From NCBI RefSeq assembly GCF_024223415.1, contig NZ_CP100500.1: a stretch of DNA of 64,000 nucleotides, one strand, 5' to 3'. This DNA comes from Escherichia coli (GTDB taxonomy: Bacteria; Pseudomonadota; Gammaproteobacteria; Enterobacterales; Enterobacteriaceae). Shown piece by piece: positions 2,051 through 29,155 of the stretch (its first letter is position 1; each line of letters opens with the position of its first letter). The notes beneath the pieces were generated by a model. The model had not been told where the DNA came from and did no database searches. It was given only the letters and a program-made list of their open reading frames with translations. The position numbers and the translations under genes were made by a program.

Positions 2051-2252
2051 TTAATTCGTAAAACGTGCTACCGATCACATTAAGAAATCAGCGCTTATTT
2101 TTTCGCTCCCCGGCATTACGCAATGCGCAGCGAACTCAGGCATACATCAAGCATAGAGAGGGATTGCAGTTTGCAGCAATCCCTCTTTGCAGACCTTTAA
2201 TCCGCTGACCATAGGCGCTAACATAGCGCCTCATTTTTTTGCGGGTGATGAT

Positions 2253-3200
2253 ATGCGTGTGTTACTGGCACCGATGGAGGGAGTGCTTGACTCTCTGGTG
2301 CGTGAATTGCTGACCGAAGTTAACGACTACGATCTGTGCATCACCGAGTTTGTCCGCGTGGTGGATCAACTGCTGCCGGTAAAAGTCTTTCATCGCATTT
2401 GCCCTGAGCTACAAAACGCCAGCCGGACACCATCTGGTACGCTGGTGCGCGTGCAGTTGTTAGGTCAGTTCCCACAATGGCTGGCAGAGAACGCCGCCCG
2501 TGCGGTGGAGTTAGGTTCCTGGGGCGTGGATCTCAATTGCGGCTGCCCGTCGAAAACGGTTAACGGTAGCGGCGGCGGGGCGACGTTACTCAAAGATCCT
2601 GAACTCATCTACCAGGGTGCAAAAGCGATGCGTGAAGCTGTACCGGCGCATTTGCCCGTCAGCGTGAAAGTGCGTCTGGGCTGGGACAGCGGTGAGAAGA
2701 AATTTGAAATCGCCGATGCGGTTCAACAGGCTGGCGCTACGGAGCTGGTGGTGCATGGGCGGACGAAAGAGCAGGGTTACCGCGCGGAGCATATTGACTG
2801 GCAGGCGATTGGCGATATTCGCCAGCGGCTGAATATTCCGGTGATTGCCAACGGTGAAATCTGGGACTGGCAGAGCGCGCAACAATGCATGGCGATCAGC
2901 GGCTGCGACGCAGTGATGATTGGTCGCGGGGCGCTCAATATTCCCAACCTGAGCCGGGTGGTAAAATATAACGAACCGCGAATGCCGTGGCCGGAGGTGG
3001 TTGCTTTGCTGCAAAAATATACCCGTCTGGAAAAGCAGGGCGATACCGGGTTATATCACGTTGCGCGGATTAAACAGTGGTTGAGTTATTTGCGTAAAGA
3101 ATACGATGAAGCAACGGAATTATTTCAGCATGTTCGGGTGTTGAATAATTCCCCTGATATTGCAAGGGCTATTCAGGCAATTGATATCGAGAAACTCTAA
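2253..3200 (+). CDS. dusC: tRNA-dihydrouridine synthase C
   Basis: Track ORF 2187..3200; start taken at [13 protein letters not shown]...; Dus-family TIM-barrel motifs (LNCGCPS, VHGRT). Confidence 0.9.
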
Positions 3201-20820: not shown

Positions 20821-21159
20821 TTACATGTTCCCCATAACGGTATCGCTCATGTCGTTAACCATGCTCTGCCAGATTTCTTTGCCGCTTTGCGTCAGCTCGT
20901 TTCCACGAACGCATTTGCTTAACAGCTGAATACCAACGGCTTCCCATTGGGGGTAATTTTCTTTGATAGCCTTCAGAGCATAACCATCGATTAAATCCCT
21001 GATACCTTTAACCCCACCGATGATGTTTACTCGTATGGATTGCCCATTGACATTAATCATGAAATGATCTCCGTTGGTGGCGGATATGTGGTTGTGCAGT
21101 GCAGCCGCATACTGATTTGCCAGCGCATTGAGGCGGAAATTTTGTGTAATGAGTGGCAT
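20821..21159 (-). CDS. hypothetical phage protein (112 aa)
   Basis: MPLITQNFRLNALANQYAAALHN...; start overlaps the upstream stop. Confidence 0.45.
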   Translation of the reverse strand: MPLITQNFRLNALANQYAAALHNHISATNGDHFMINVNGQSIRVNIIGGVKGIRDLIDGYALKAIKENYPQWEAVGIQLLSKCVRGNELTQSGKEIWQSMVNDMSDTVMGNM

Positions 21160-21905
21160 TATTTACCCTCCCAACCAATCACCTGAAACAGCCCCATTTT
21201 CGGGTGATACCAGCGGGTACCGCGTGGCTCTGCCTCTGACATCATCTGATGAAATGCTTTCATGAACGGCTCAAGCTCCACGATAGCCCGGCGAGAAAGA
21301 AGACCATCTGGCGTCATAAATTCGTGCGTATCGGTTGGGATGCTGTAGGCATTGACCAGATTGCGGCACTTGGCATCAGTCATTCCGCTTTTGGCGACCA
21401 CCTGGCGATAACCGACATATCCGGCGCGCATATTTCCGCGTTTGATGTTCTCCACAGCTTTGGTGACCGTTTCGATCTTCTCTTCAACATGACTCAGGCG
21501 CTTCTGCTGGCGAACGGCATCGGCGGCCATTGCAGCGATCATCTCCATTTCCGTCAGCGGCGCGTGAGTTCGGAAATAGCTGTTAACCAGTTCGCGCTGA
21601 ACCTGCCATGCAAGAGTATCGTTAAAAGGCTTCGTCAACATCAGGTAACCAGACTCGAAAAGAATGATCCCTTTGGCAGTTCGCGCGGCAAAGGCATCAG
21701 AAAGTGACTCCGTACGTATTACGTCCGCAGTCATTTCAAGAAAATCCACCCCTTCGATAAAGTGAGAACGGTTGCGGTTAAACGCAGCACGGGCGGTACC
21801 TTCCGGGCGCTGGTGGACGTCATCAATCATTGCAAATGTCACAACACGCTGACCGCGATATTCGATTACCGGAAACTGTTTGTTGTTGATGGTTACAGTA
21901 TTCAT
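21159..21905 (-). CDS. ORF6N/KilA-N-like domain protein (antirepressor-like)
   Basis: Track ORF 21159..21980; start taken at MNTVTINNKQFPVIEYRGQRVVTFAMIDDV... with GGAG RBS; N-terminal region resembles the ORF6N/Bro-N DNA-binding fold. Confidence 0.5.
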   Translation of the reverse strand: MNTVTINNKQFPVIEYRGQRVVTFAMIDDVHQRPEGTARAAFNRNRSHFIEGVDFLEMTADVIRTESLSDAFAARTAKGIILFESGYLMLTKPFNDTLAWQVQRELVNSYFRTHAPLTEMEMIAAMAADAVRQQKRLSHVEEKIETVTKAVENIKRGNMRAGYVGYRQVVAKSGMTDAKCRNLVNAYSIPTDTHEFMTPDGLLSRRAIVELEPFMKAFHQMMSEAEPRGTRWYHPKMGLFQVIGWEGK

Positions 21906-21948
21906 TTTTATCTCCAGACAGCCCGGCGTGTAATACCGGGCATATGTA

Positions 21949-22776
21949 TTACTTAACCTGAATAAATGGTGTGTTGGCACCGCTGGTCATGTATTGCGGC
22001 AGTGTACCGTTCCACTTGTTGATGGCTTCCAGCTCCATAACGTTTGGGTTCTGGCGCAGAGCTTCACCGCGTAAACGAATAGCATCGGCTTCGGCCTGGG
22101 CTTTTGTGCGAATCGCATCTGCCTGTCCGGCAGCTTCCGCGCGCAACATGTTGGCTTCCGCTTCGCGCTGTTTTACTTCCTGCTCGCGTTGCAGGGTTTT
22201 CTGGTTGGCCGTGACTTTGGCATTAATGCTGTCGATAACGGTTGGCGGGTACTCCGGCTTACCCACATATGAGAGGCTCATTACCTGAATACCGATAGGT
22301 GTCATCTCTGCCTGAATGTCTTTAAGAGCTTCATCCAGCAGCTCAGACTTGCCGCCGTCGATAAATTTGTCAGTGGTCATTTTGCTGGCCAGTCGGTTGA
22401 GTGCGTCGGCGATCTTCTGGCGCAGGTCAGTGTCGGTAATGTCATCCACGCCTTTGCGGTAGGTCTGAAACACCGTGGTAACTTTGGATGGATCAACTTT
22501 GTAGGCCACGCCAATGTGATAGCCGATGGTTGTACCGTCACTCATCTGGAAACTGAACGGTTCATCGTAGGTCTTCATTTGTTTGAAGGTGGGGAAGATA
22601 TAAACTTCAGTATTCCAGCCAGTCCAGTAGCGACCAACACCGACCACCTCACCGACGCCTTTGTCGTCGCCCAGTTTATTTACCTTGATGCCAACATTAC
22701 CTGGTTCAACGCGATCGCAACCGACAAGGCCAATAGTCGGCAGAACAATGGCTAAAGCAAAAATAATTTTTTTCAT
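21949..22776 (-). CDS. SPFH/band-7 (prohibitin-like) domain lipoprotein
   Basis: MKKIIFALAIVLPTIGLVGC lipoprotein signal (lipobox LVGC); central SPFH-like domain and Ala/Glu/Gln-rich coiled coil (QREQEVKQREAEANMLRAEAAGQADAIR). Confidence 0.7.
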   Translation of the reverse strand: MKKIIFALAIVLPTIGLVGCDRVEPGNVGIKVNKLGDDKGVGEVVGVGRYWTGWNTEVYIFPTFKQMKTYDEPFSFQMSDGTTIGYHIGVAYKVDPSKVTTVFQTYRKGVDDITDTDLRQKIADALNRLASKMTTDKFIDGGKSELLDEALKDIQAEMTPIGIQVMSLSYVGKPEYPPTVIDSINAKVTANQKTLQREQEVKQREAEANMLRAEAAGQADAIRTKAQAEADAIRLRGEALRQNPNVMELEAINKWNGTLPQYMTSGANTPFIQVK

Positions 22777-22961
22777 CTTTTATCCTTAGTGAAAGAAAGA
22801 CCCTTGTAAATGGCATAAATGCAGGGCGGGGTCAGAAACGCCAGTGCAAAGCCAGAAATAACTGCTATCGTATCCTTCATGGATATAAGGAACGGAACGA
22901 TTAATCCGTAAATACATGTGATAATTGCCAGTGATATAACTATTCTGAAATAAATGTTCAT
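22773..22961 (-). CDS. small two-TM membrane protein (62 aa)
   Basis: MNIYFRIVISLAIITCIYGLIVPFLISMK...; its stop overlaps the start of the SPFH lipoprotein gene. Confidence 0.5.
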   Translation of the reverse strand: MNIYFRIVISLAIITCIYGLIVPFLISMKDTIAVISGFALAFLTPPCIYAIYKGLSFTKDKR

Positions 22962-23021
22962 GGTCCTCCTGATGTATTCGGCTTGCCTTATTTAATTGCG
23001 TCATAGTTAATTTCGTTTACG

Positions 23022-23267
23022 TCAGAATGGTTTTGTTGCCATCAGTTCGTAATATCCGGCGCTCCATGTGTCATATTTTCTGAACCATTTTTCTGTATAC
23101 TGTTTCCTGGCGATGAGTCTGCGCAGTCGTCTGATTGTTCGCTGGTGTGCGCGGGTATACTCTGTGGTTGATTCTCCACGTTTCCATATCTCATTCCTGT
23201 TGAAGATAAAACGCTTGTCAGGATAGCGTTGTCGGAATCCTGAACGTTCAAAAGCGCGGGTGGTCAT
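23022..23267 (-). CDS. hypothetical basic protein (81 aa), possibly a gene remnant
   Basis: Arg/Lys-rich ORF; upstream 23270..23420 holds an out-of-frame fragment (MIDNRTASAIDQALQKHDTPVGPLFFVTRHGR...) across an A8/T8 tract. Confidence 0.3.
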   Translation of the reverse strand: MTTRAFERSGFRQRYPDKRFIFNRNEIWKRGESTTEYTRAHQRTIRRLRRLIARKQYTEKWFRKYDTWSAGYYELMATKPF

Positions 23268-23601
23268 AAAGAATGCCAGGTAACGAATTGCCGTTTTTCG
23301 AGTGAGGCATTTTTTTTGTTCTTCCGTGGCGTGTTACAAAAAATAACGGGCCGACGGGTGTATCATGTTTCTGTAATGCCTGGTCAATGGCGCTGGCGGT
23401 GCGGTTGTCGATCATTTCTTTATTTCTCCCGAATAACGTTCATGACTCATTACTTCCCAGTTCCGGCCGTCGTCTTTCGATAACAGCCGCCAGCGACGGT
23501 TAACCTTCAGACTGAGATATCCGGTGCGCTGTATCCGATGCGGAAATATCCGTCGGCATCGGTACAACAACAGGACCTGCAATGCCTGCCGGTGGATCCG
23601 C

Positions 23602-23817
23602 TCAGGAATGCGTGTTGCTGTTAATGCCACCGGTTTCCTCCTGAGCAGGTGCTGTTATCTGATACCCCGCTCTTTCTGCCAGCCGTATGAATGTATCCAT
23701 GCTGGCAATCAGCTCGCCATCGCGGACTTTGCAGACACCTGTGACTTGGCCATTTTCAATTGTCATAACGATCTGCACTTTTTCGCGCACAACAGATACA
23801 GGGGATAAATTAGCCAT
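23602..23817 (-). CDS. hypothetical phage protein (71 aa)
   Basis: Start overlaps the upstream gene stop (ATGA). Confidence 0.35.
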   Translation of the reverse strand: MANLSPVSVVREKVQIVMTIENGQVTGVCKVRDGELIASMDTFIRLAERAGYQITAPAQEETGGINSNTHS

Positions 23818-24176
23818 CAGTTAATTCCTCCACTGGTATATTTTTCTTTTTCGTAATCAACAACCTCTTTTAAAAGGTTGTCTACAATTAACTTCCCCGA
23901 TTCAGTTAGATACTCAGTGTGTTGATTAATATTGATGGCATTGCGGTATGCGGCAAGTATTGCGGTCTCGCCATCCGTCCGTCCAAATTCAACACGGGTA
24001 AGACCTTCAAATCGTAATAACAGTTGTGTCATGAAGTGTTCCGTAATTTCGATGGTAGTTAACCCTCCGTCAGGAAGATTTACGATGAGAAGATTTCCTC
24101 CTGTTTTACGTTGCATCCGCTGTAATGCTGTTGTGACTATGCGGTGACGATATTTACCAATGATTTCATATGCCAT
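23817..24176 (-). CDS. hypothetical phage protein (119 aa)
   Basis: MAYEIIGKYRHRIVTTALQRMQRK...; no family recognised. Confidence 0.45.
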   Translation of the reverse strand: MAYEIIGKYRHRIVTTALQRMQRKTGGNLLIVNLPDGGLTTIEITEHFMTQLLLRFEGLTRVEFGRTDGETAILAAYRNAININQHTEYLTESGKLIVDNLLKEVVDYEKEKYTSGGIN

Positions 24177-24179
24177 TTG

Positions 24180-24278
24180 TTATTTCCCGTATGCTTTCCT
24201 AAGAAACAGTATTGCAACTGACCAGTATCCTGCATTAGCCATTAATAAGGCGGTTTTATAAGCGCTTCTATTTTTCAT
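24180..24278 (-). CDS. candidate 32-aa hydrophobic peptide
   Basis: MKNRSAYKTALLMANAGYWSVAILFLRKAYGK with GGTGA upstream; below the track cutoff. Confidence 0.3.
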   Translation of the reverse strand: MKNRSAYKTALLMANAGYWSVAILFLRKAYGK

Positions 24279-24360
24279 GTATCACCATTATTTTCTGGTT
24301 GTGAAAACTCCCGACCAGAGGCCGTCATGTTTTTATGTGTGATTTTTTATTGAGTATTCT

Positions 24361-24552
24361 TTATTCGTTACGTAGTGTTTCTATATACTCGTAAGCCATT
24401 TCACAGGTCTTATTCATGGACCTGATGAGACAACATAAATAATCGTCTAACTCTCCTGAGTCGGGCGAATTCTTAAATATAAATTCAAGCATTGATGTAT
24501 TCTCTTTTATTTGTGCCGCCACTTCCTCAAGAATATTTAATGGAGTTTTCAT
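24361..24552 (-). CDS. small acidic helical protein (63 aa), third gene of the module downstream of cI
   Basis: MKTPLNILEEVAAQIKENTSMLEF...; AAGGAG RBS; start overlaps the upstream stop (ATGA). Confidence 0.5.
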   Translation of the reverse strand: MKTPLNILEEVAAQIKENTSMLEFIFKNSPDSGELDDYLCCLIRSMNKTCEMAYEYIETLRNE

Positions 24553-24740
24553 GTTCTTTGCTCCTTTAATGTGTCTCTGGCGCTTCTGGCGTATTGTTGT
24601 GCAAGTAAAAAGATGTCATCCGAAAGTTCATCACATTCTTCATCACCTGAAGCCGAAATGATTAACCCCGCTTCAAGCAGTACGGCAATGTGATGAAAAG
24701 CTGTTTCCGGTTCGTTGGTGAGGCCTTTGAACATTTTCAT
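24549..24740 (-). CDS. small protein (62 aa) paralogous to the N-terminal domain of the adjacent HTH regulator
   Basis: MKMFKGLTNEPETAFHHIAVLLEAGLIISASGDEECDELSDDIFLLAQQYARSA aligns with residues ~8-60 of the 139-aa protein; AGGAGG RBS 9 nt upstream. Confidence 0.55.
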   Translation of the reverse strand: MKMFKGLTNEPETAFHHIAVLLEAGLIISASGDEECDELSDDIFLLAQQYARSARDTLKEQRT

Positions 24741-24741
24741 T

Positions 24742-25161
24742 TTATGCTTCCTCCTGATTTTGTTTATAAGCACCAGTCAGTAACCACATCGGATCACAGC
24801 CAAGAACATTAGCCAGAGGAATAATCTGGCTTGCCAGAGGCTCCCTCTTGCCACTTTCCCACTGGATGATAATTTCTTCATCGAGATTGAGCAGCCTGGC
24901 GAGTTCGGCGGTTGTTAAGCCGCAGTCTTCGCGTTGGGTGCGAATCCGATTCTGGGAATTAATAGCTAAATTTTGTTTGCATAAACGTGACGCGGTGAGG
25001 CTATATTTTTGAGTTACAGCCAGGATGGAGCTGGCAAGTTCAATTAACTCAGGGTTATTGCTGCTATACAGTAGTGCACCAGCCCCTACTAAGAGCTGAA
25101 TATTCTCAAGAGCATCGTGCTGATTTGTTGGTAACCCCATATACGATGACATTTTTCTCAT
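24742..25161 (-). CDS. XRE-family HTH regulator with an N-terminal helical domain (139 aa)
   Basis: C-terminal HTH CGLTTAELARLLNLDEEIIIQWESGKREPL; first gene after the promoter downstream of cI; GAGG RBS. Confidence 0.6.
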   Translation of the reverse strand: MRKMSSYMGLPTNQHDALENIQLLVGAGALLYSSNNPELIELASSILAVTQKYSLTASRLCKQNLAINSQNRIRTQREDCGLTTAELARLLNLDEEIIIQWESGKREPLASQIIPLANVLGCDPMWLLTGAYKQNQEEA

Positions 25162-25198
25162 CCTCTATAATTGCTTTGGTGAGTTCGATACCTATGTC

Positions 25199-25235
25199 AA
25201 GATAATAGGTTTACCGATTTCACCTGTCAATCGGT
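25199..25235 (-). promoter_or_regulatory. strong sigma70-type leftward promoter (pL-like) with overlapping inverted repeat
   Basis: Minus strand reads TTGACA-17 bp-TATTAT; inverted repeat ACCGAT(n11)ATCGGT overlaps the -35; TTATCG half-sites resemble the OR palindrome. Confidence 0.5.
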
Positions 25236-25250
25236 TTATCGATTTTTTCC

Positions 25251-25280
25251 AAAAAAAAGCCCACTTAAGAGTGGGCGGGT
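25251..25280 (-). terminator. rho-independent terminator downstream of cI
   Basis: Minus strand hairpin GCCCAC-tcttaa-GTGGGC followed by T8, 15 bp past the cI stop. Confidence 0.55.
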
Positions 25281-25294
25281 TAAATGATTTTTGC

Positions 25295-25987
25295 TTATGC
25301 AAAACGGTGTAGTGTCATAGGCCAACTGACAATTACTTTTCCGTCAATGTGAAGTTGTTCGAAGTCTTCCGGTTCGATAGCCCAATCCTTGTAAGCTGGG
25401 TTGTCAGATATCACCGTTAGAGTATCTTTGATTTTTTGAAGTCTTTTGATGTGCGATGTTCCAGAGTATGTAAAGGCGTATATACCATCACCATTAAATG
25501 TGCGAACTGATACATCTACAAATACCAAGTCTTCAGGGTCTATTGTGCCTTTCATACTGTCGCCGTGGGCGTTTATTGCTTTGATTGCTGATGCTGGTCT
25601 GCCGCCAAAAACTCTTGATGCGTATCCTGGCTCTATCGCTATAGATCTGACAATGTCAGGAAAATCAGAGTTATAACTACCAGGTCCGCAACTATATCTG
25701 ATGTCTAAAACATCCACGACATACGAATCAGTAACCCAATCTTCAGAAATGTTACGTATTTGGTGTGAGTCTGCAGAGGTCACGATTTCCATTGGGCCAA
25801 CACCCGATGCGAGCCATTCCGGGTTAACGCCCAAAACTTTTGCTATTTCGACTGTTTTTCTGGAACCGTTGGCTTTGTTAAGTAGTTGGTTAACACTGGA
25901 CTGAGCCATACCCACTTCTTTGGCCAGCCTACCTTGCGTAAATTTTGCGTTGCGCATAGCTAAATCAAGTCGTTCTGAAAATGTCAT
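25295..25987 (-). CDS. cI: CI-like repressor (HTH + S24 LexA-type peptidase domain)
   Basis: N-terminal HTH (FTQGRLAKEVGMAQSSVNQL) and C-terminal S24 autocleavage domain (AHGDSMKG...IKRL); divergent from the cro-like gene. Confidence 0.85.
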   Translation of the reverse strand: MTFSERLDLAMRNAKFTQGRLAKEVGMAQSSVNQLLNKANGSRKTVEIAKVLGVNPEWLASGVGPMEIVTSADSHQIRNISEDWVTDSYVVDVLDIRYSCGPGSYNSDFPDIVRSIAIEPGYASRVFGGRPASAIKAINAHGDSMKGTIDPEDLVFVDVSVRTFNGDGIYAFTYSGTSHIKRLQKIKDTLTVISDNPAYKDWAIEPEDFEQLHIDGKVIVSWPMTLHRFA

Positions 25988-26019
25988 TGCGATTTTCCTC
26001 CCCTCTCTATCTTGGCTAG

Positions 26020-26039
26020 TTTATCGGCTTTCCGATAAA
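26020..26039. promoter_or_regulatory. operator-like palindrome in the cI/cro intergenic region
   Basis: TTTATCGG-cttt-CCGATAAA perfect inverted repeat. Confidence 0.5.
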
Positions 26040-26055
26040 TATTCTAGGTTTAACG

Positions 26056-26084
26056 TTGAATATCGCTTTTCCTGTTGTTATTAT
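26056..26084 (+). promoter_or_regulatory. pR-like promoter
   Basis: TTGAAT-17 bp-TATTAT followed by AGGAGA RBS and the cro-like ATG at 26107. Confidence 0.45.
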
Positions 26085-26106
26085 GCGTTCAATAGGAGAT
26101 GCGATT

Positions 26107-26394
26107 ATGAAACATAAAGCCATAGAGAAAGCTATTGAGATTCTTGGAAGTCAGCAAGCCTTAGCCAAGCGATGCGGAAAGGCCCAGTCAACAGTCTGCG
26201 ATTGGTTGAACTGCAAGAACAAGATTTCACCAGAATTTGTGCCGTTATTGGTTGCAGCTGTCGACGGAAAGATCCAAGCGTATGAATTTCGTCCAGACCT
26301 ACCAGAGCTTTTTCCACATCCAAGCTTAGCGCGCACGGGGGAGGTGAAGGGCTTGTATGTCCCAGAATTACGTTCAGACAGAGATGCCATCTAG
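26107..26394 (+). CDS. Cro-like HTH regulator
   Basis: MKHKAIEKAIEILGSQQALAKRCGKAQSTVCDWLN... HTH; divergent from cI; track ORF 26056..26394 starts at an upstream alternative codon. Confidence 0.65.
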   Translation: MKHKAIEKAIEILGSQQALAKRCGKAQSTVCDWLNCKNKISPEFVPLLVAAVDGKIQAYEFRPDLPELFPHPSLARTGEVKGLYVPELRSDRDAI

Positions 26395-26650
26395 GTACTG
26401 CCAGGCAGACGAAGAGTGGATTCAGCAGCAGTTACAGAGGCTGCCTCCGTCACTGAGACGGAAGGTCGCCCTGAAATATGCGGAGGTATACGAAATCACT
26501 TTTGACGCTGAGCCTGTTTCATTCCGCAAGGAGAACAGAGCAAGGCACGAAGCAAACACAAGGCTCCGCCTGTTCGTGAGAAATCAGGGCAGAGCTTTAC
26601 AGGGGTATACAACTCAGCCGCCCCTGGCAGGAACGCAATCGCGCTCCTGA
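26357..26650 (+). CDS. hypothetical protein at the cII position
   Basis: 97-aa ORF overlapping the cro-like 3' end; start uncertain. Confidence 0.35.
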   Translation: MSQNYVQTEMPSRYCQADEEWIQQQLQRLPPSLRRKVALKYAEVYEITFDAEPVSFRKENRARHEANTRLRLFVRNQGRALQGYTTQPPLAGTQSRS

Positions 26651-26906
26651 TTGGTACCGGGCTTAAAGGTGTCCGGTGGCTGATTGAAAATGGTAAAAAT
26701 ATTTAGACGTCTATATGTCTGGATGTATTTACCACCCCCTAAATGTTTATGGGGGAAAGGGGGCGGTGTTGATCTTTTAGCGCGAAGCGCTGGAACAGGC
26801 TTTTCCAAGAAGACGGGTACATAGGTTAGGTAGATCTCTGTATAGGGAAATACCAGAAGACGCTCAGATGTTTAGACGTCCAGCCGTAAAGATTGGAGGT
26901 GATTTT

Positions 26907-27500
26907 ATGGTTAACAATTTTGCTGATGAAAAATGGATTCCGGTTCCTGTTGCTCCTTACGGCAACGCTTACCTCGTTAGTTCGGCTGGACGCATTCGCG
27001 GTGTTAATCGTGTAGCTGAATCAGAATTTTTTATTCGTCAAATCCGTGGAGTGATCCTCAAAGGGAGGGTGCGTCGGGATGGATATAAGACCGTTAACCT
27101 GAGCTACAAACGAAATCGTCAAACATTTGCCATTCATCGCCTGGTAGCGCTGGCTTTTTGCGACAACCCACACAATCACACTGAGGTTAATCACAAAGAC
27201 GGCAACAAACTAAATAACCACGCATCCAATCTGGAGTGGGTTAGCCACAAAGAAAATATTCAGCACTCAATTCTTACAGGACTCAATAAATCGCAGGGGG
27301 CTGACAACAAGCAATTTAAGGGCCTAATTGTCGCTACAAATCTTTCGACCGGGGAGGAGCAAACTTTTTGCGGGAAAAAGGCGCTAATTAGTGCTGGGTT
27401 TGATCACGGTAGTGTTTATGCGGTTATTGCTGGAAGAGTAAAGTCTCATCGTGGCCACTATTTCAAGCGCCTCCCACTGAACCATGAGGAGGCAGCTTAA
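26907..27500 (+). CDS. HNH endonuclease
   Basis: Start MVNNFADEKWIPV... with GGAGGTG RBS; HNH core EVNHKDGNKLNNHASNLEWVSHKEN. Confidence 0.7.
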   Translation: MVNNFADEKWIPVPVAPYGNAYLVSSAGRIRGVNRVAESEFFIRQIRGVILKGRVRRDGYKTVNLSYKRNRQTFAIHRLVALAFCDNPHNHTEVNHKDGNKLNNHASNLEWVSHKENIQHSILTGLNKSQGADNKQFKGLIVATNLSTGEEQTFCGKKALISAGFDHGSVYAVIAGRVKSHRGHYFKRLPLNHEEAA

Positions 27501-29155
27501 TGCTGAATATTGAACCGAATTTTGCACAGGAGCGAGCGCTAAACATGTTGCGCCGTGACTGGAAGGCAAACGACACCTTCATGGTGTATTCGCCAACCGG
27601 TAGCGGTAAAACGGGTCTGGCAGCCTTCATAGTTGCTGGTTTTGTCAGCCGTGGTATGCGCGTTCTGTTCTGTGTTCCGTACACCATCCTGATTGGTCAG
27701 ACGGCTAATCGGTTCGTGCAGTATGGTTTACCTGGAGATGAAATCGGTTATATCTGGGCGGATCACCCTAACTACGATCCGGACCGGAAAATTCAGATTG
27801 CCAGCGCTGACACGCTTATTCGTCGTGTTTTTCCTGAAAATATCGATCTGCTGATTATCGACGAAGCGCACCTGCGTAAAAAACGCATCCTGAAGGATAT
27901 CGAACGTCTGCGCGGCAAAGGCGTAAAGGTGATTGGCCTGTCGGGTACTCCGTTTTCTCCGTTCCTGGGCAAATACTATGACCGACTGATTAAGCCGACC
28001 ACCATCGGCGAGTTAATCCAGCGTGGCGATCTGAGTAAATACGAATTTTACGCGCCAACTAAGCCGGATCTGAAAGGTGTTAAAACCACATCTTCGCTTG
28101 AGTACGGCCGCGATTACAACGAAACACAGCTGGCTGAAATCATGTGCGGCTCTACGCTGGTGGGCGACATCGTACAGAACTGGCTGGAGAATGGTCGGGA
28201 TCTACCTACCATCGCTTTCTGCGTCAACGTAGCTCACGCCAATTATCTGACAATCCAGTTTAACCTGGCGGCTGTTAACGCTGAGGTAATGACCGCCGAC
28301 ACTCCGGTAGATGAGCACCAGACCATCATTCACCGCTTTGAAACCGGTGCAACGAAAATCATCGTTAGTGTGGGCGTTCTGGTAGCCGGATTCGATAGTG
28401 ACGTTCGTTGCATCATCTACGCCAGACCAACAAAAAGCGAAATTCGCTGGTTGCAGGCACTCGGGCGTGGACTTCGCACCGCACCGGGTAAAGAGTCCTG
28501 CCTTATCTTCGATCACAGCGGCACCGTGCACCGTCTGGGTTATCCGGATTCAATCGAGTACGACGATCTTCCCGGTAAGTCTGACGGCATGGAGGAAAGC
28601 ACGCGCCGCGCAGTTGAGGAACGGGCCGAAAAATTGCCACATGAATGCCCTCAATGCCACTACATGAAGCCAGCTGGCGTCTATGTTTGCCCGAAATGTG
28701 GACACAAGCCGCTGCGAGGTGAAGACGTTGATACTGACACTAGCCGCAAACTTAATAAGCTGGGTAAAAATCAGCATCAGTCCACGAAGGCAGAGAAACA
28801 GGCCTGGTGGAGTCAGATCAAATTTTATCAGCGCCAGCGTGCCTCACTGGGGCGTCCAGTCAGTGATGGATGGTGCGCTCACACTTTCAGGGAGAAATTC
28901 GGTGAATGGCCTGATGGGTTGAGTAGTTTCCCGATGGAAATAAGCCCAGAGGTAAGTAACTACATCAGACACAAGCTGATCCGGTTTGCTAAAGGTCGTG
29001 AACGGACACGGAGGATGACGAAAAACTCATCCGAAGTGCTTTCTCTGCCACTGGTTGTTGGTGGCCGGTATGTTCCACCGGAAGAAAGTGAGGCTTGGCG
29101 CATTATGCAGGCAAAGCAACAACTCCAGAAAAATATAAACAGTCTGAGTCAGTAA
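27500..29155 (+). CDS. SF2 DEAD/DEAH-type helicase (phage replication)
   Basis: Walker A SPTGSGKT, DEAH-like IIDEAH, motif VI QALGRGLR; C-terminal Cys4 (CPQCH...CPKCGH). Confidence 0.8.
   Translation: MLNIEPNFAQERALNMLRRDWKANDTFMVYSPTGSGKTGLAAFIVAGFVSRGMRVLFCVPYTILIGQTANRFVQYGLPGDEIGYIWADHPNYDPDRKIQIASADTLIRRVFPENIDLLIIDEAHLRKKRILKDIERLRGKGVKVIGLSGTPFSPFLGKYYDRLIKPTTIGELIQRGDLSKYEFYAPTKPDLKGVKTTSSLEYGRDYNETQLAEIMCGSTLVGDIVQNWLENGRDLPTIAFCVNVAHANYLTIQFNLAAVNAEVMTADTPVDEHQTIIHRFETGATKIIVSVGVLVAGFDSDVRCIIYARPTKSEIRWLQALGRGLRTAPGKESCLIFDHSGTVHRLGYPDSIEYDDLPGKSDGMEESTRRAVEERAEKLPHECPQCHYMKPAGVYVCPKCGHKPLRGEDVDTDTSRKLNKLGKNQHQSTKAEKQAWWSQIKFYQRQRASLGRPVSDGWCAHTFREKFGEWPDGLSSFPMEISPEVSNYIRHKLIRFAKGRERTRRMTKNSSEVLSLPLVVGGRYVPPEESEAWRIMQAKQQLQKNINSLSQ

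Follow-up and report, generated by a model that had tools for sequence, protein, structure and literature searches.

A short open reading frame (ORF) of 32 codons, carried by a prophage in a 64,000-nucleotide stretch of Escherichia coli DNA (contig NZ_CP100500.1 of assembly GCF_024223415.1; the whole stretch is called the window below), is almost certainly a real protein-coding gene, judging by comparison with its relatives. On the same kind of evidence, its family is widespread in temperate phages of Enterobacterales and Aeromonas. The best overall explanation, which we hold at a probability of roughly 0.5, is that the product is a basic cytoplasmic microprotein with a hairpin fold, expressed from the early-left operon, translationally coupled to the gene that follows and acting by binding protein within its module.

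24180..24278 (stop included), minus strand: coding sequence of 32 amino acids (aa), ATG, 32 codons, TAA; translation MKNRSAYKTALLMANAGYWSVAILFLRKAYGK

The ORF had been picked out in a preliminary description of this DNA, and it is present at 24180-24278 as described, on the minus strand; its peptide MKNRSAYKTALLMANAGYWSVAILFLRKAYGK has a net charge of +6. The length of the ORF alone is within chance, with 95 ORFs of at least 25 aa overlapping the 7 kb from 21000 to 28000, and it is accepted as a gene because of its conservation in comparison, not because of its length. A tblastn search with the peptide against 50,697 phage records gives full-length matches, at 47-97% identity, in phi467, eight Klebsiella phages, Salmonella Fels-1, phiP27, about 20 Stx1/Stx2-converting phages, Cronobacter ENT39118 and Aeromonas AsXd-1. 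The phage homologues span five genera (Escherichia, Klebsiella, Salmonella, Cronobacter and Aeromonas), and every phage locus inspected has a complete ORF of 32-37 codons at the same early-left operon position. A pattern scan finds a relative encoded on 546 IMG/VR contigs. Among the complete E. coli genomes (5,426), the window type occurs in 122-129 and the phiP27/Stx1 type in 260.

Many of the sampled loci, which are the best 80 of each scan, are close relatives of one another. The best 80 IMG/VR loci and the phage loci together hold 28 distinct peptides of 31-37 aa at the syntenic position. The family consensus is M-x-N-K-x-A-[YF]-K-T-A-x-L-M-x-x-A-G-Y-W-x-I-A-x-L-F-L-[RK]-K-A-Y-G-[RK], and the conserved motif within it is A-[YF]-x-T-A-x-L...G-Y-W-x-[IV]-A-x-L-[FY]-L-[RK]-K-A-Y-G-[KR]. 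Nine columns are invariant: A10, G17, Y18, A22, L26, K28, A29, Y30 and G31.

The coding signature was measured on 30 distinct 87-nucleotide (nt) coding tails. Pooled over these related sequences, with no correction for phylogeny, the ratio of nonsynonymous to synonymous change (pN/pS) in the sense frame is 0.32 at a pS of 0.73. The ratio is 1.1-1.6 in four of the other frames and 0.47 in the antisense frame that shares the wobble position. Entropy at codon positions 1, 2 and 3 is 0.65, 0.54 and 1.24, the third varying about twice as much as the first and second, and each of the five other frames has stops in 24-30 of the 30 sequences. Frame, length, start and stop of the ORF are preserved across divergent relatives, and the amino acids are, by this sequence measure, under purifying selection along the whole length. 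An antisense ORF of 33 aa in the wobble-sharing frame (24160..24261, plus strand) was rejected as an artefact, being interrupted by stops in all 30 relatives. The preliminary description was to be abandoned if the gap holding the ORF turned out to be unconserved or to have no coding signature in related phages; with the pN/pS above and homologues in five genera, neither is the case.

The gap is left unannotated by RefSeq (Prokaryotic Genome Annotation Pipeline, PGAP) in every E. coli relative inspected and in the phi467 record. A hypothetical protein deposited for E. coli B108 is identical to the window peptide, and two GenBank submitters annotate the family ORF as a coding sequence (QBP27728.1 and BCI49831.1), an annotation found in the phage records Klebsiella ST340-VIM1phi10.1 and Stx1_EH1995. 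The Pfam, NCBIfam and PADLOC profile libraries give no match for the peptide. A HMMER scan of 1.84 billion representatives returns three matches, namely a 32-aa relative, a 47-aa frameshift or fusion variant and an unrelated 724-aa protein, so few that microproteins of this kind are evidently seldom called as genes. Profile matches indicate that the family is partly catalogued in PHROGs v4 as phrog_2180, an uncharacterised entry with neither function nor description: 18 of the 29 aligned family members match this profile at E ≤0.01 (best 3.9e-6), over the conserved C-terminal half of the family. For the window peptide the match is weaker, at E 0.059 over residues 17-31, and the profile has 56 positions against the 32 aa here. 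The ORF joins the small uncharacterised early phage proteins, which are common.

AlphaFold2, run with the family alignment, predicts a helix at residues 4-16, a turn at the invariant G17-Y18 and a second helix at residues 19-30, with a predicted local distance difference test (pLDDT) score of 94.6, high values of which are weak evidence for short helical peptides. Conservation in helix 2 extends to more than one face (I21, A22, L24, F25, L26, A29 and Y30), beyond what packing on helix 1 would need, and suggests oligomerisation or a partner. The model looks like a single hairpin of the tetratricopeptide repeat (TPR) type, with its length of about 34 residues in the order helix A, Gly, helix B and its pattern of small and large residues. 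The best PDB profile match to the peptide is a designed TPR (E 0.065, non-significant), and most of the top Foldseek matches are TPR proteins (root-mean-square deviation 0.3-0.8 A over about 27 residues, all at E >1). However, no Pfam TPR model matched, nor did any Pfam family at E ≤1, and a solitary repeat is not a TPR domain; the peptide is not classed as a TPR.

A gap of 184 nt separates the 63-aa gene at 24361..24552 from the 119-aa gene at 23817..24176; the ORF fills 99 nt of it and has conserved elements on both sides.

24324..24312, minus strand: 5' untranslated region (UTR) hairpin CGGCC-UCU-GGUCG, 5 bp, about -5.9 kcal/mol
24300..24311, minus strand: conserved single-stranded tail 3' of the hairpin, GGAGUUUUCACA; family consensus GGGGAWU-N3-4-CAYA
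24286..24282, minus strand: Shine-Dalgarno (SD)-like GGTGA, 3 nt before the ATG of the ORF
24174..24188, minus strand: coupling junction, comprising the last codons GGG AAA (SD-like for the 119-aa gene), TAA, CAA and the ATG of the 119-aa gene

The gap had been put at 185 bp, which is essentially right, and the GGTGA proposed as a plausible ribosome-binding site is found before the ATG and usable; relatives have AGGAG, GGAGG or AAGGTG in its place. At the other end, 3 nt separate the stop of the ORF from the start codon of the 119-aa gene. With the next gene defined as the ORF of at least 50 aa placed by script at the junction, 56 distinct loci could be compared. The next start falls between 11 nt inside the end of the ORF and 3 nt past its stop in 55 of them; 46 have it 2-3 nt beyond the stop, and four show an overlap of the ATGA/GTGA type. 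The final Gly-Arg/Lys codons (GGGAGA, GGGAGG or GGGAAA) form the downstream SD. This anatomy suggests that translation of the downstream gene is coupled to that of the peptide gene. The gene in question belongs to phrog_1737 (119-128 aa) in the window class and the Klebsiella phages and to a 73-74 aa family in most others, while in phiP27 and the Stx1 phages it encodes a phrog_340-like protein.

The hairpin lies about 35-45 nt before the peptide start in most family members, where an intergenic region exists. In 16 distinct sequences outside the window class, pairing in its 4-bp stem amounts to 93.8%; column shuffles give 74% (none of 500 attains the observed value), and sliding the partners lowers the pairing to 30-50%. 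Compensatory changes occur at all four stem pairs in these sequences. RNAalifold finds no structure on a plain MAFFT alignment and recovers the hairpin once the register is corrected for the window class, the failure being due to the 5+3+5 hairpin of that class as opposed to 4+6+4 elsewhere. The hairpin covaries, and it may function at the start of translation. The UTR as a whole is not unusually stable (fold z-score -0.86). No second copy of the hairpin, as in a nut-like pair, is present in the window, where matches occur at chance frequency, and the hairpin matches no Rfam family. The ENT39118/AsXd-1 class has no UTR, and its peptide ATG follows the stop of the helix-turn-helix (HTH) gene by about 1 nt. 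The conserved upstream motif was also compared by eye with sigma-70 and sigma-54 promoters and did not fit.

The gene after the ORF and those behind it recur with the peptide in a module.

23817..24176, minus strand: 119-aa gene, phrog_1737 (E 1.4e-48), PHROG label unknown function
23602..23817, minus strand: 71-aa gene, phrog_340, part of the conserved module
23412..23630, minus strand: ParE-like toxin-domain gene (PF24732, E 3.3e-17; RefSeq annotation in relatives), closing the conserved module

A phrog_1737 gene lies downstream in 84 of 86 loci selected by the peptide, most of which also have a ParE-like gene. When loci are chosen by phrog_1737 alone (down to 52% identity), all 80 have, upstream and on the same strand, an ORF of the peptide family, which either adjoins the phrog_1737 gene or lies about 220 nt away with a 74-aa gene in between. 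The recurrent module reads hairpin, peptide, (74 aa), phrog_1737, (phrog_340), ParE-like. The phrog_1737 protein is modelled by AlphaFold2 at pLDDT 91, and structural and sequence searches with it gave no informative match. The ParE-like gene and the 71-aa phrog_340 gene before it share 29 nt (23412..23817, minus strand), and the two may be a toxin-antitoxin pair inside the early operon that is conserved together with the microprotein module. Two paralogous small genes, 67-68 aa upstream and 74 aa downstream (blastp about 1e-5), flank the microprotein gene in many phages; examples are the pairs at 2228..2431 and 2602..2826 of locus L057 and at 2217..2423 and 2603..2827 of locus L087.

The region is an E. 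coli prophage, in which 24150..24380 is 100% identical to strain TUM1886 and 23600..24800 matches phage phi467 and further E. coli prophages at 87-92% identity. Upstream of the gap are the following features.

25295..25987, minus strand: LexA-family cI-like repressor gene
25276..25259, minus strand: intrinsic-terminator-like hairpin and T-run at the end of the repressor gene
25230..25202, minus strand: strong sigma-70 promoter-like site TTGACA-17-TATTAT directly after that terminator, the presumed early-left promoter
24742..25161, minus strand: DicA/CII-like HTH gene of 139 aa, first gene of the operon, scored as 'CII-like regulator' by PHROGs
24549..24740, minus strand: 63-aa gene, upstream in the same operon
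24361..24552, minus strand: 63-aa gene bordering the gap

Repeats of the CGGTAAACC type flank the promoter-like site (25199..25244, minus strand) and recur in the cI/cro intergenic region (26038..26055). They are probably operators, which would put the operon under repressor control. No promoter was found in the gap, and the ORF looks like an internal gene of an apparent repressor-controlled early-left operon, in agreement with its earlier placement downstream of the repressor-proximal module. Beyond the ParE-like gene, a very hydrophobic ORF of 62 aa, MNIYFRIVISLAIITCIYGLIVPFLISMKDTIAVISGFALAFLTPPCIYAIYKGLSFTKDKR (22773..22961, minus strand), has a 4-nt overlap with the start of a gene for an SPFH-domain lipoprotein (21949..22776). 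It is a far better candidate for a membrane peptide than the 32-aa ORF, and a related E. coli genome lists its counterpart as hypothetical.

Four other explanations were ranked, in descending order, as a Kil/cIII-like inhibitor, a regulatory coupling ORF, a membrane toxin and a non-coding element. In phage lambda, Kil (47 aa) is a division inhibitor that targets FtsZ/ZipA, and cIII (54 aa) inhibits FtsH. A functional analogue of these would bind and inhibit a host protein after induction, independently of the neighbouring phage genes, an unlikely reading here but the first in rank. Like Kil and cIII, the window peptide is small and predicted to be helical, and it is encoded downstream of regulators in an apparently repressor-controlled early-left operon of a temperate phage, presumably to be made on induction; the first gene of the operon is the one scored as CII-like, and the peptide recombines independently of its downstream neighbour, like a self-contained accessory gene. 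On the other hand, it is shorter, strongly basic and apparently always coupled to the next gene, and the near-universal linkage to phrog_1737 together with the tight coupling points to a role inside the module. The likeness to Kil drawn in the preliminary description has no profile similarity behind it, with an hhalign probability of 2.2% against lambda Kil (and 0.15% against lambda cIII). The tight junction could also be read as the whole purpose of the ORF, a device in which hairpin-gated translation delivers ribosomes downstream and the peptide product is secondary. The position of the next start, which is kept whichever gene follows, the SD formed by the last two codons and the covarying hairpin just upstream of the peptide start all fit such an upstream ORF. 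Purifying selection over the whole length is hard to square with it, the nine invariant residues and the coherent pattern of helix, turn and helix would not be needed for pure ribosome delivery, and even beside the SD, in the K-A-Y codons, synonymous changes are common. It is accordingly ranked next, and is likewise improbable.

The preliminary description had proposed a single hydrophobic helix and a peptide of the type I toxin or Kil-like kind, and a membrane-active small toxin, whether type I or a hydrophobic Kil/holin-like peptide with one transmembrane helix, is now very improbable. What suggests it is that the peptide is small, basic and encoded in a prophage, and that the window variant has an uncharged stretch of 18 residues, TALLMANAGYWSVAILFL, flanked by basic residues. 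Type I toxins such as Hok, Ldr, TisB, Ibs and ShoB are similar in their length of about 30 aa, their basic ends and their frequent association with prophages. But the best 19-residue Kyte-Doolittle mean is 1.28 in the window peptide and 0.17-1.42 in the family, below the usual cut-off of 1.6, and the Hessa insertion energy sums to +4.6 kcal/mol (+3.4 to +12.5 in the family). In many relatives the presumed helix contains D, E, H, K, R, N or Q, for example KDAFKTAKMMCSAGYWDIAILFLKKAYGR and AAFKTAQLFHTSGYNIIAELFLRKAYGR, the longest uncharged run going down to 6-8 residues, and all family members are basic (net charge +3 to +6). AlphaFold2 splits the stretch at G17-Y18 into two helices, where the toxins have a single one. 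The ORF lies inside an operon, apparently coupled to its neighbour and with no promoter of its own found in the gap; it is not an autonomous locus with a long structured 5' UTR. An antisense promoter for a small RNA (sRNA), suggested earlier as a check, was sought on the plus strand over 23600..25400, and no promoter-like site was found by a consensus scan, which could miss a weak promoter; Rfam gives no antitoxin RNA or other match in 24177..24360 at E ≤10 (scan of 23500..25000), and the antisense frame is the one closed in all 30 relatives. The peptide is very probably a soluble or peripheral hairpin. Least probable of all is that the ORF is incidental and the gap conserved for a non-coding reason, such as a DicF-like sRNA or a DNA site. 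The layout does recall the Qin dicBF operon (dicA/ydfA-ydfB-ydfC-dicF-dicB), with its DicA-like HTH regulator, tiny ORFs, conserved gap and further small genes, and with an sRNA in a similar gap; PGAP does not annotate the ORF, and close E. coli relatives differ less in the DNA of the gap than at the start of the following gene. However, homology is confined to the HTH domain (37% over 68 aa), and blastp finds no peptide similarity to Qin DicA, YdfA, YdfB, YdfC, DicB or YdfD. Frame, length, start and stop are kept at saturated synonymous divergence while the other frames are closed. Rfam recognises nothing in the gap, which holds a coding microprotein and a 13-nt hairpin in place of a DicF-like sRNA, and this conserved non-coding hairpin is upstream of the ORF, not within it.

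In the preferred reading, of a coupled hairpin microprotein that binds protein, the peptide would be transcribed from the repressor-controlled promoter at 25230..25202; its expression would probably be off in the lysogen and begin early upon induction. Its start lies behind the small covarying RNA hairpin, which may govern it, and its last two codons would supply the downstream SD, so that ribosomes pass from the peptide to the next gene. The peptide would most likely act by binding protein, with helix 2 offering its conserved hydrophobic and aromatic surface for contact. The partner may well belong to the module that the peptide heads (peptide, optional 74-aa protein, phrog_1737, phrog_340 and ParE-like), with phrog_1737 as the foremost candidate, a tentative placement drawn from co-occurrence and held at somewhat less than even odds.

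Several observations weigh against this reading. Near-identical phrog_1737 proteins pair with different peptide variants, and this recombination between peptide and phrog_1737 variants weakens the guess that phrog_1737 is the partner in a putative specific complex. The coupled downstream gene varies by phage, and phiP27 and the Stx1 phages lack phrog_1737. A hairpin of 32 residues may not fold alone, and the GGTGA of the window ORF, with its 3-nt spacing, is a mediocre SD. With many of the best 80 of each scan being close relatives, the co-occurrence counts and the pooled pN/pS are not independent observations. Searches of 8 million full texts, and of the supplements to two surveys of small ORFs in enterobacteria, do not turn up the peptide motif strings.

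The finding points to an apparent systematic annotation gap, since the gene occurs in several hundred of the 5,426 complete E. coli genomes and on more than 500 viral contigs. It also removes the tempting but wrong label of membrane toxin, and the motif, predicted fold, cis-RNA element and fixed neighbourhood make the microprotein directly testable. A more specific and rather doubtful proposal is that the solitary TPR-like hairpin is an obligate, co-translated, stoichiometric subunit or assembly factor of an unrecognised early module, its production gated by the RNA hairpin. If true, this would be a new and widespread microprotein-controlled phage system, which might for example tune the ParE-like toxin or the take-over of the host after induction.
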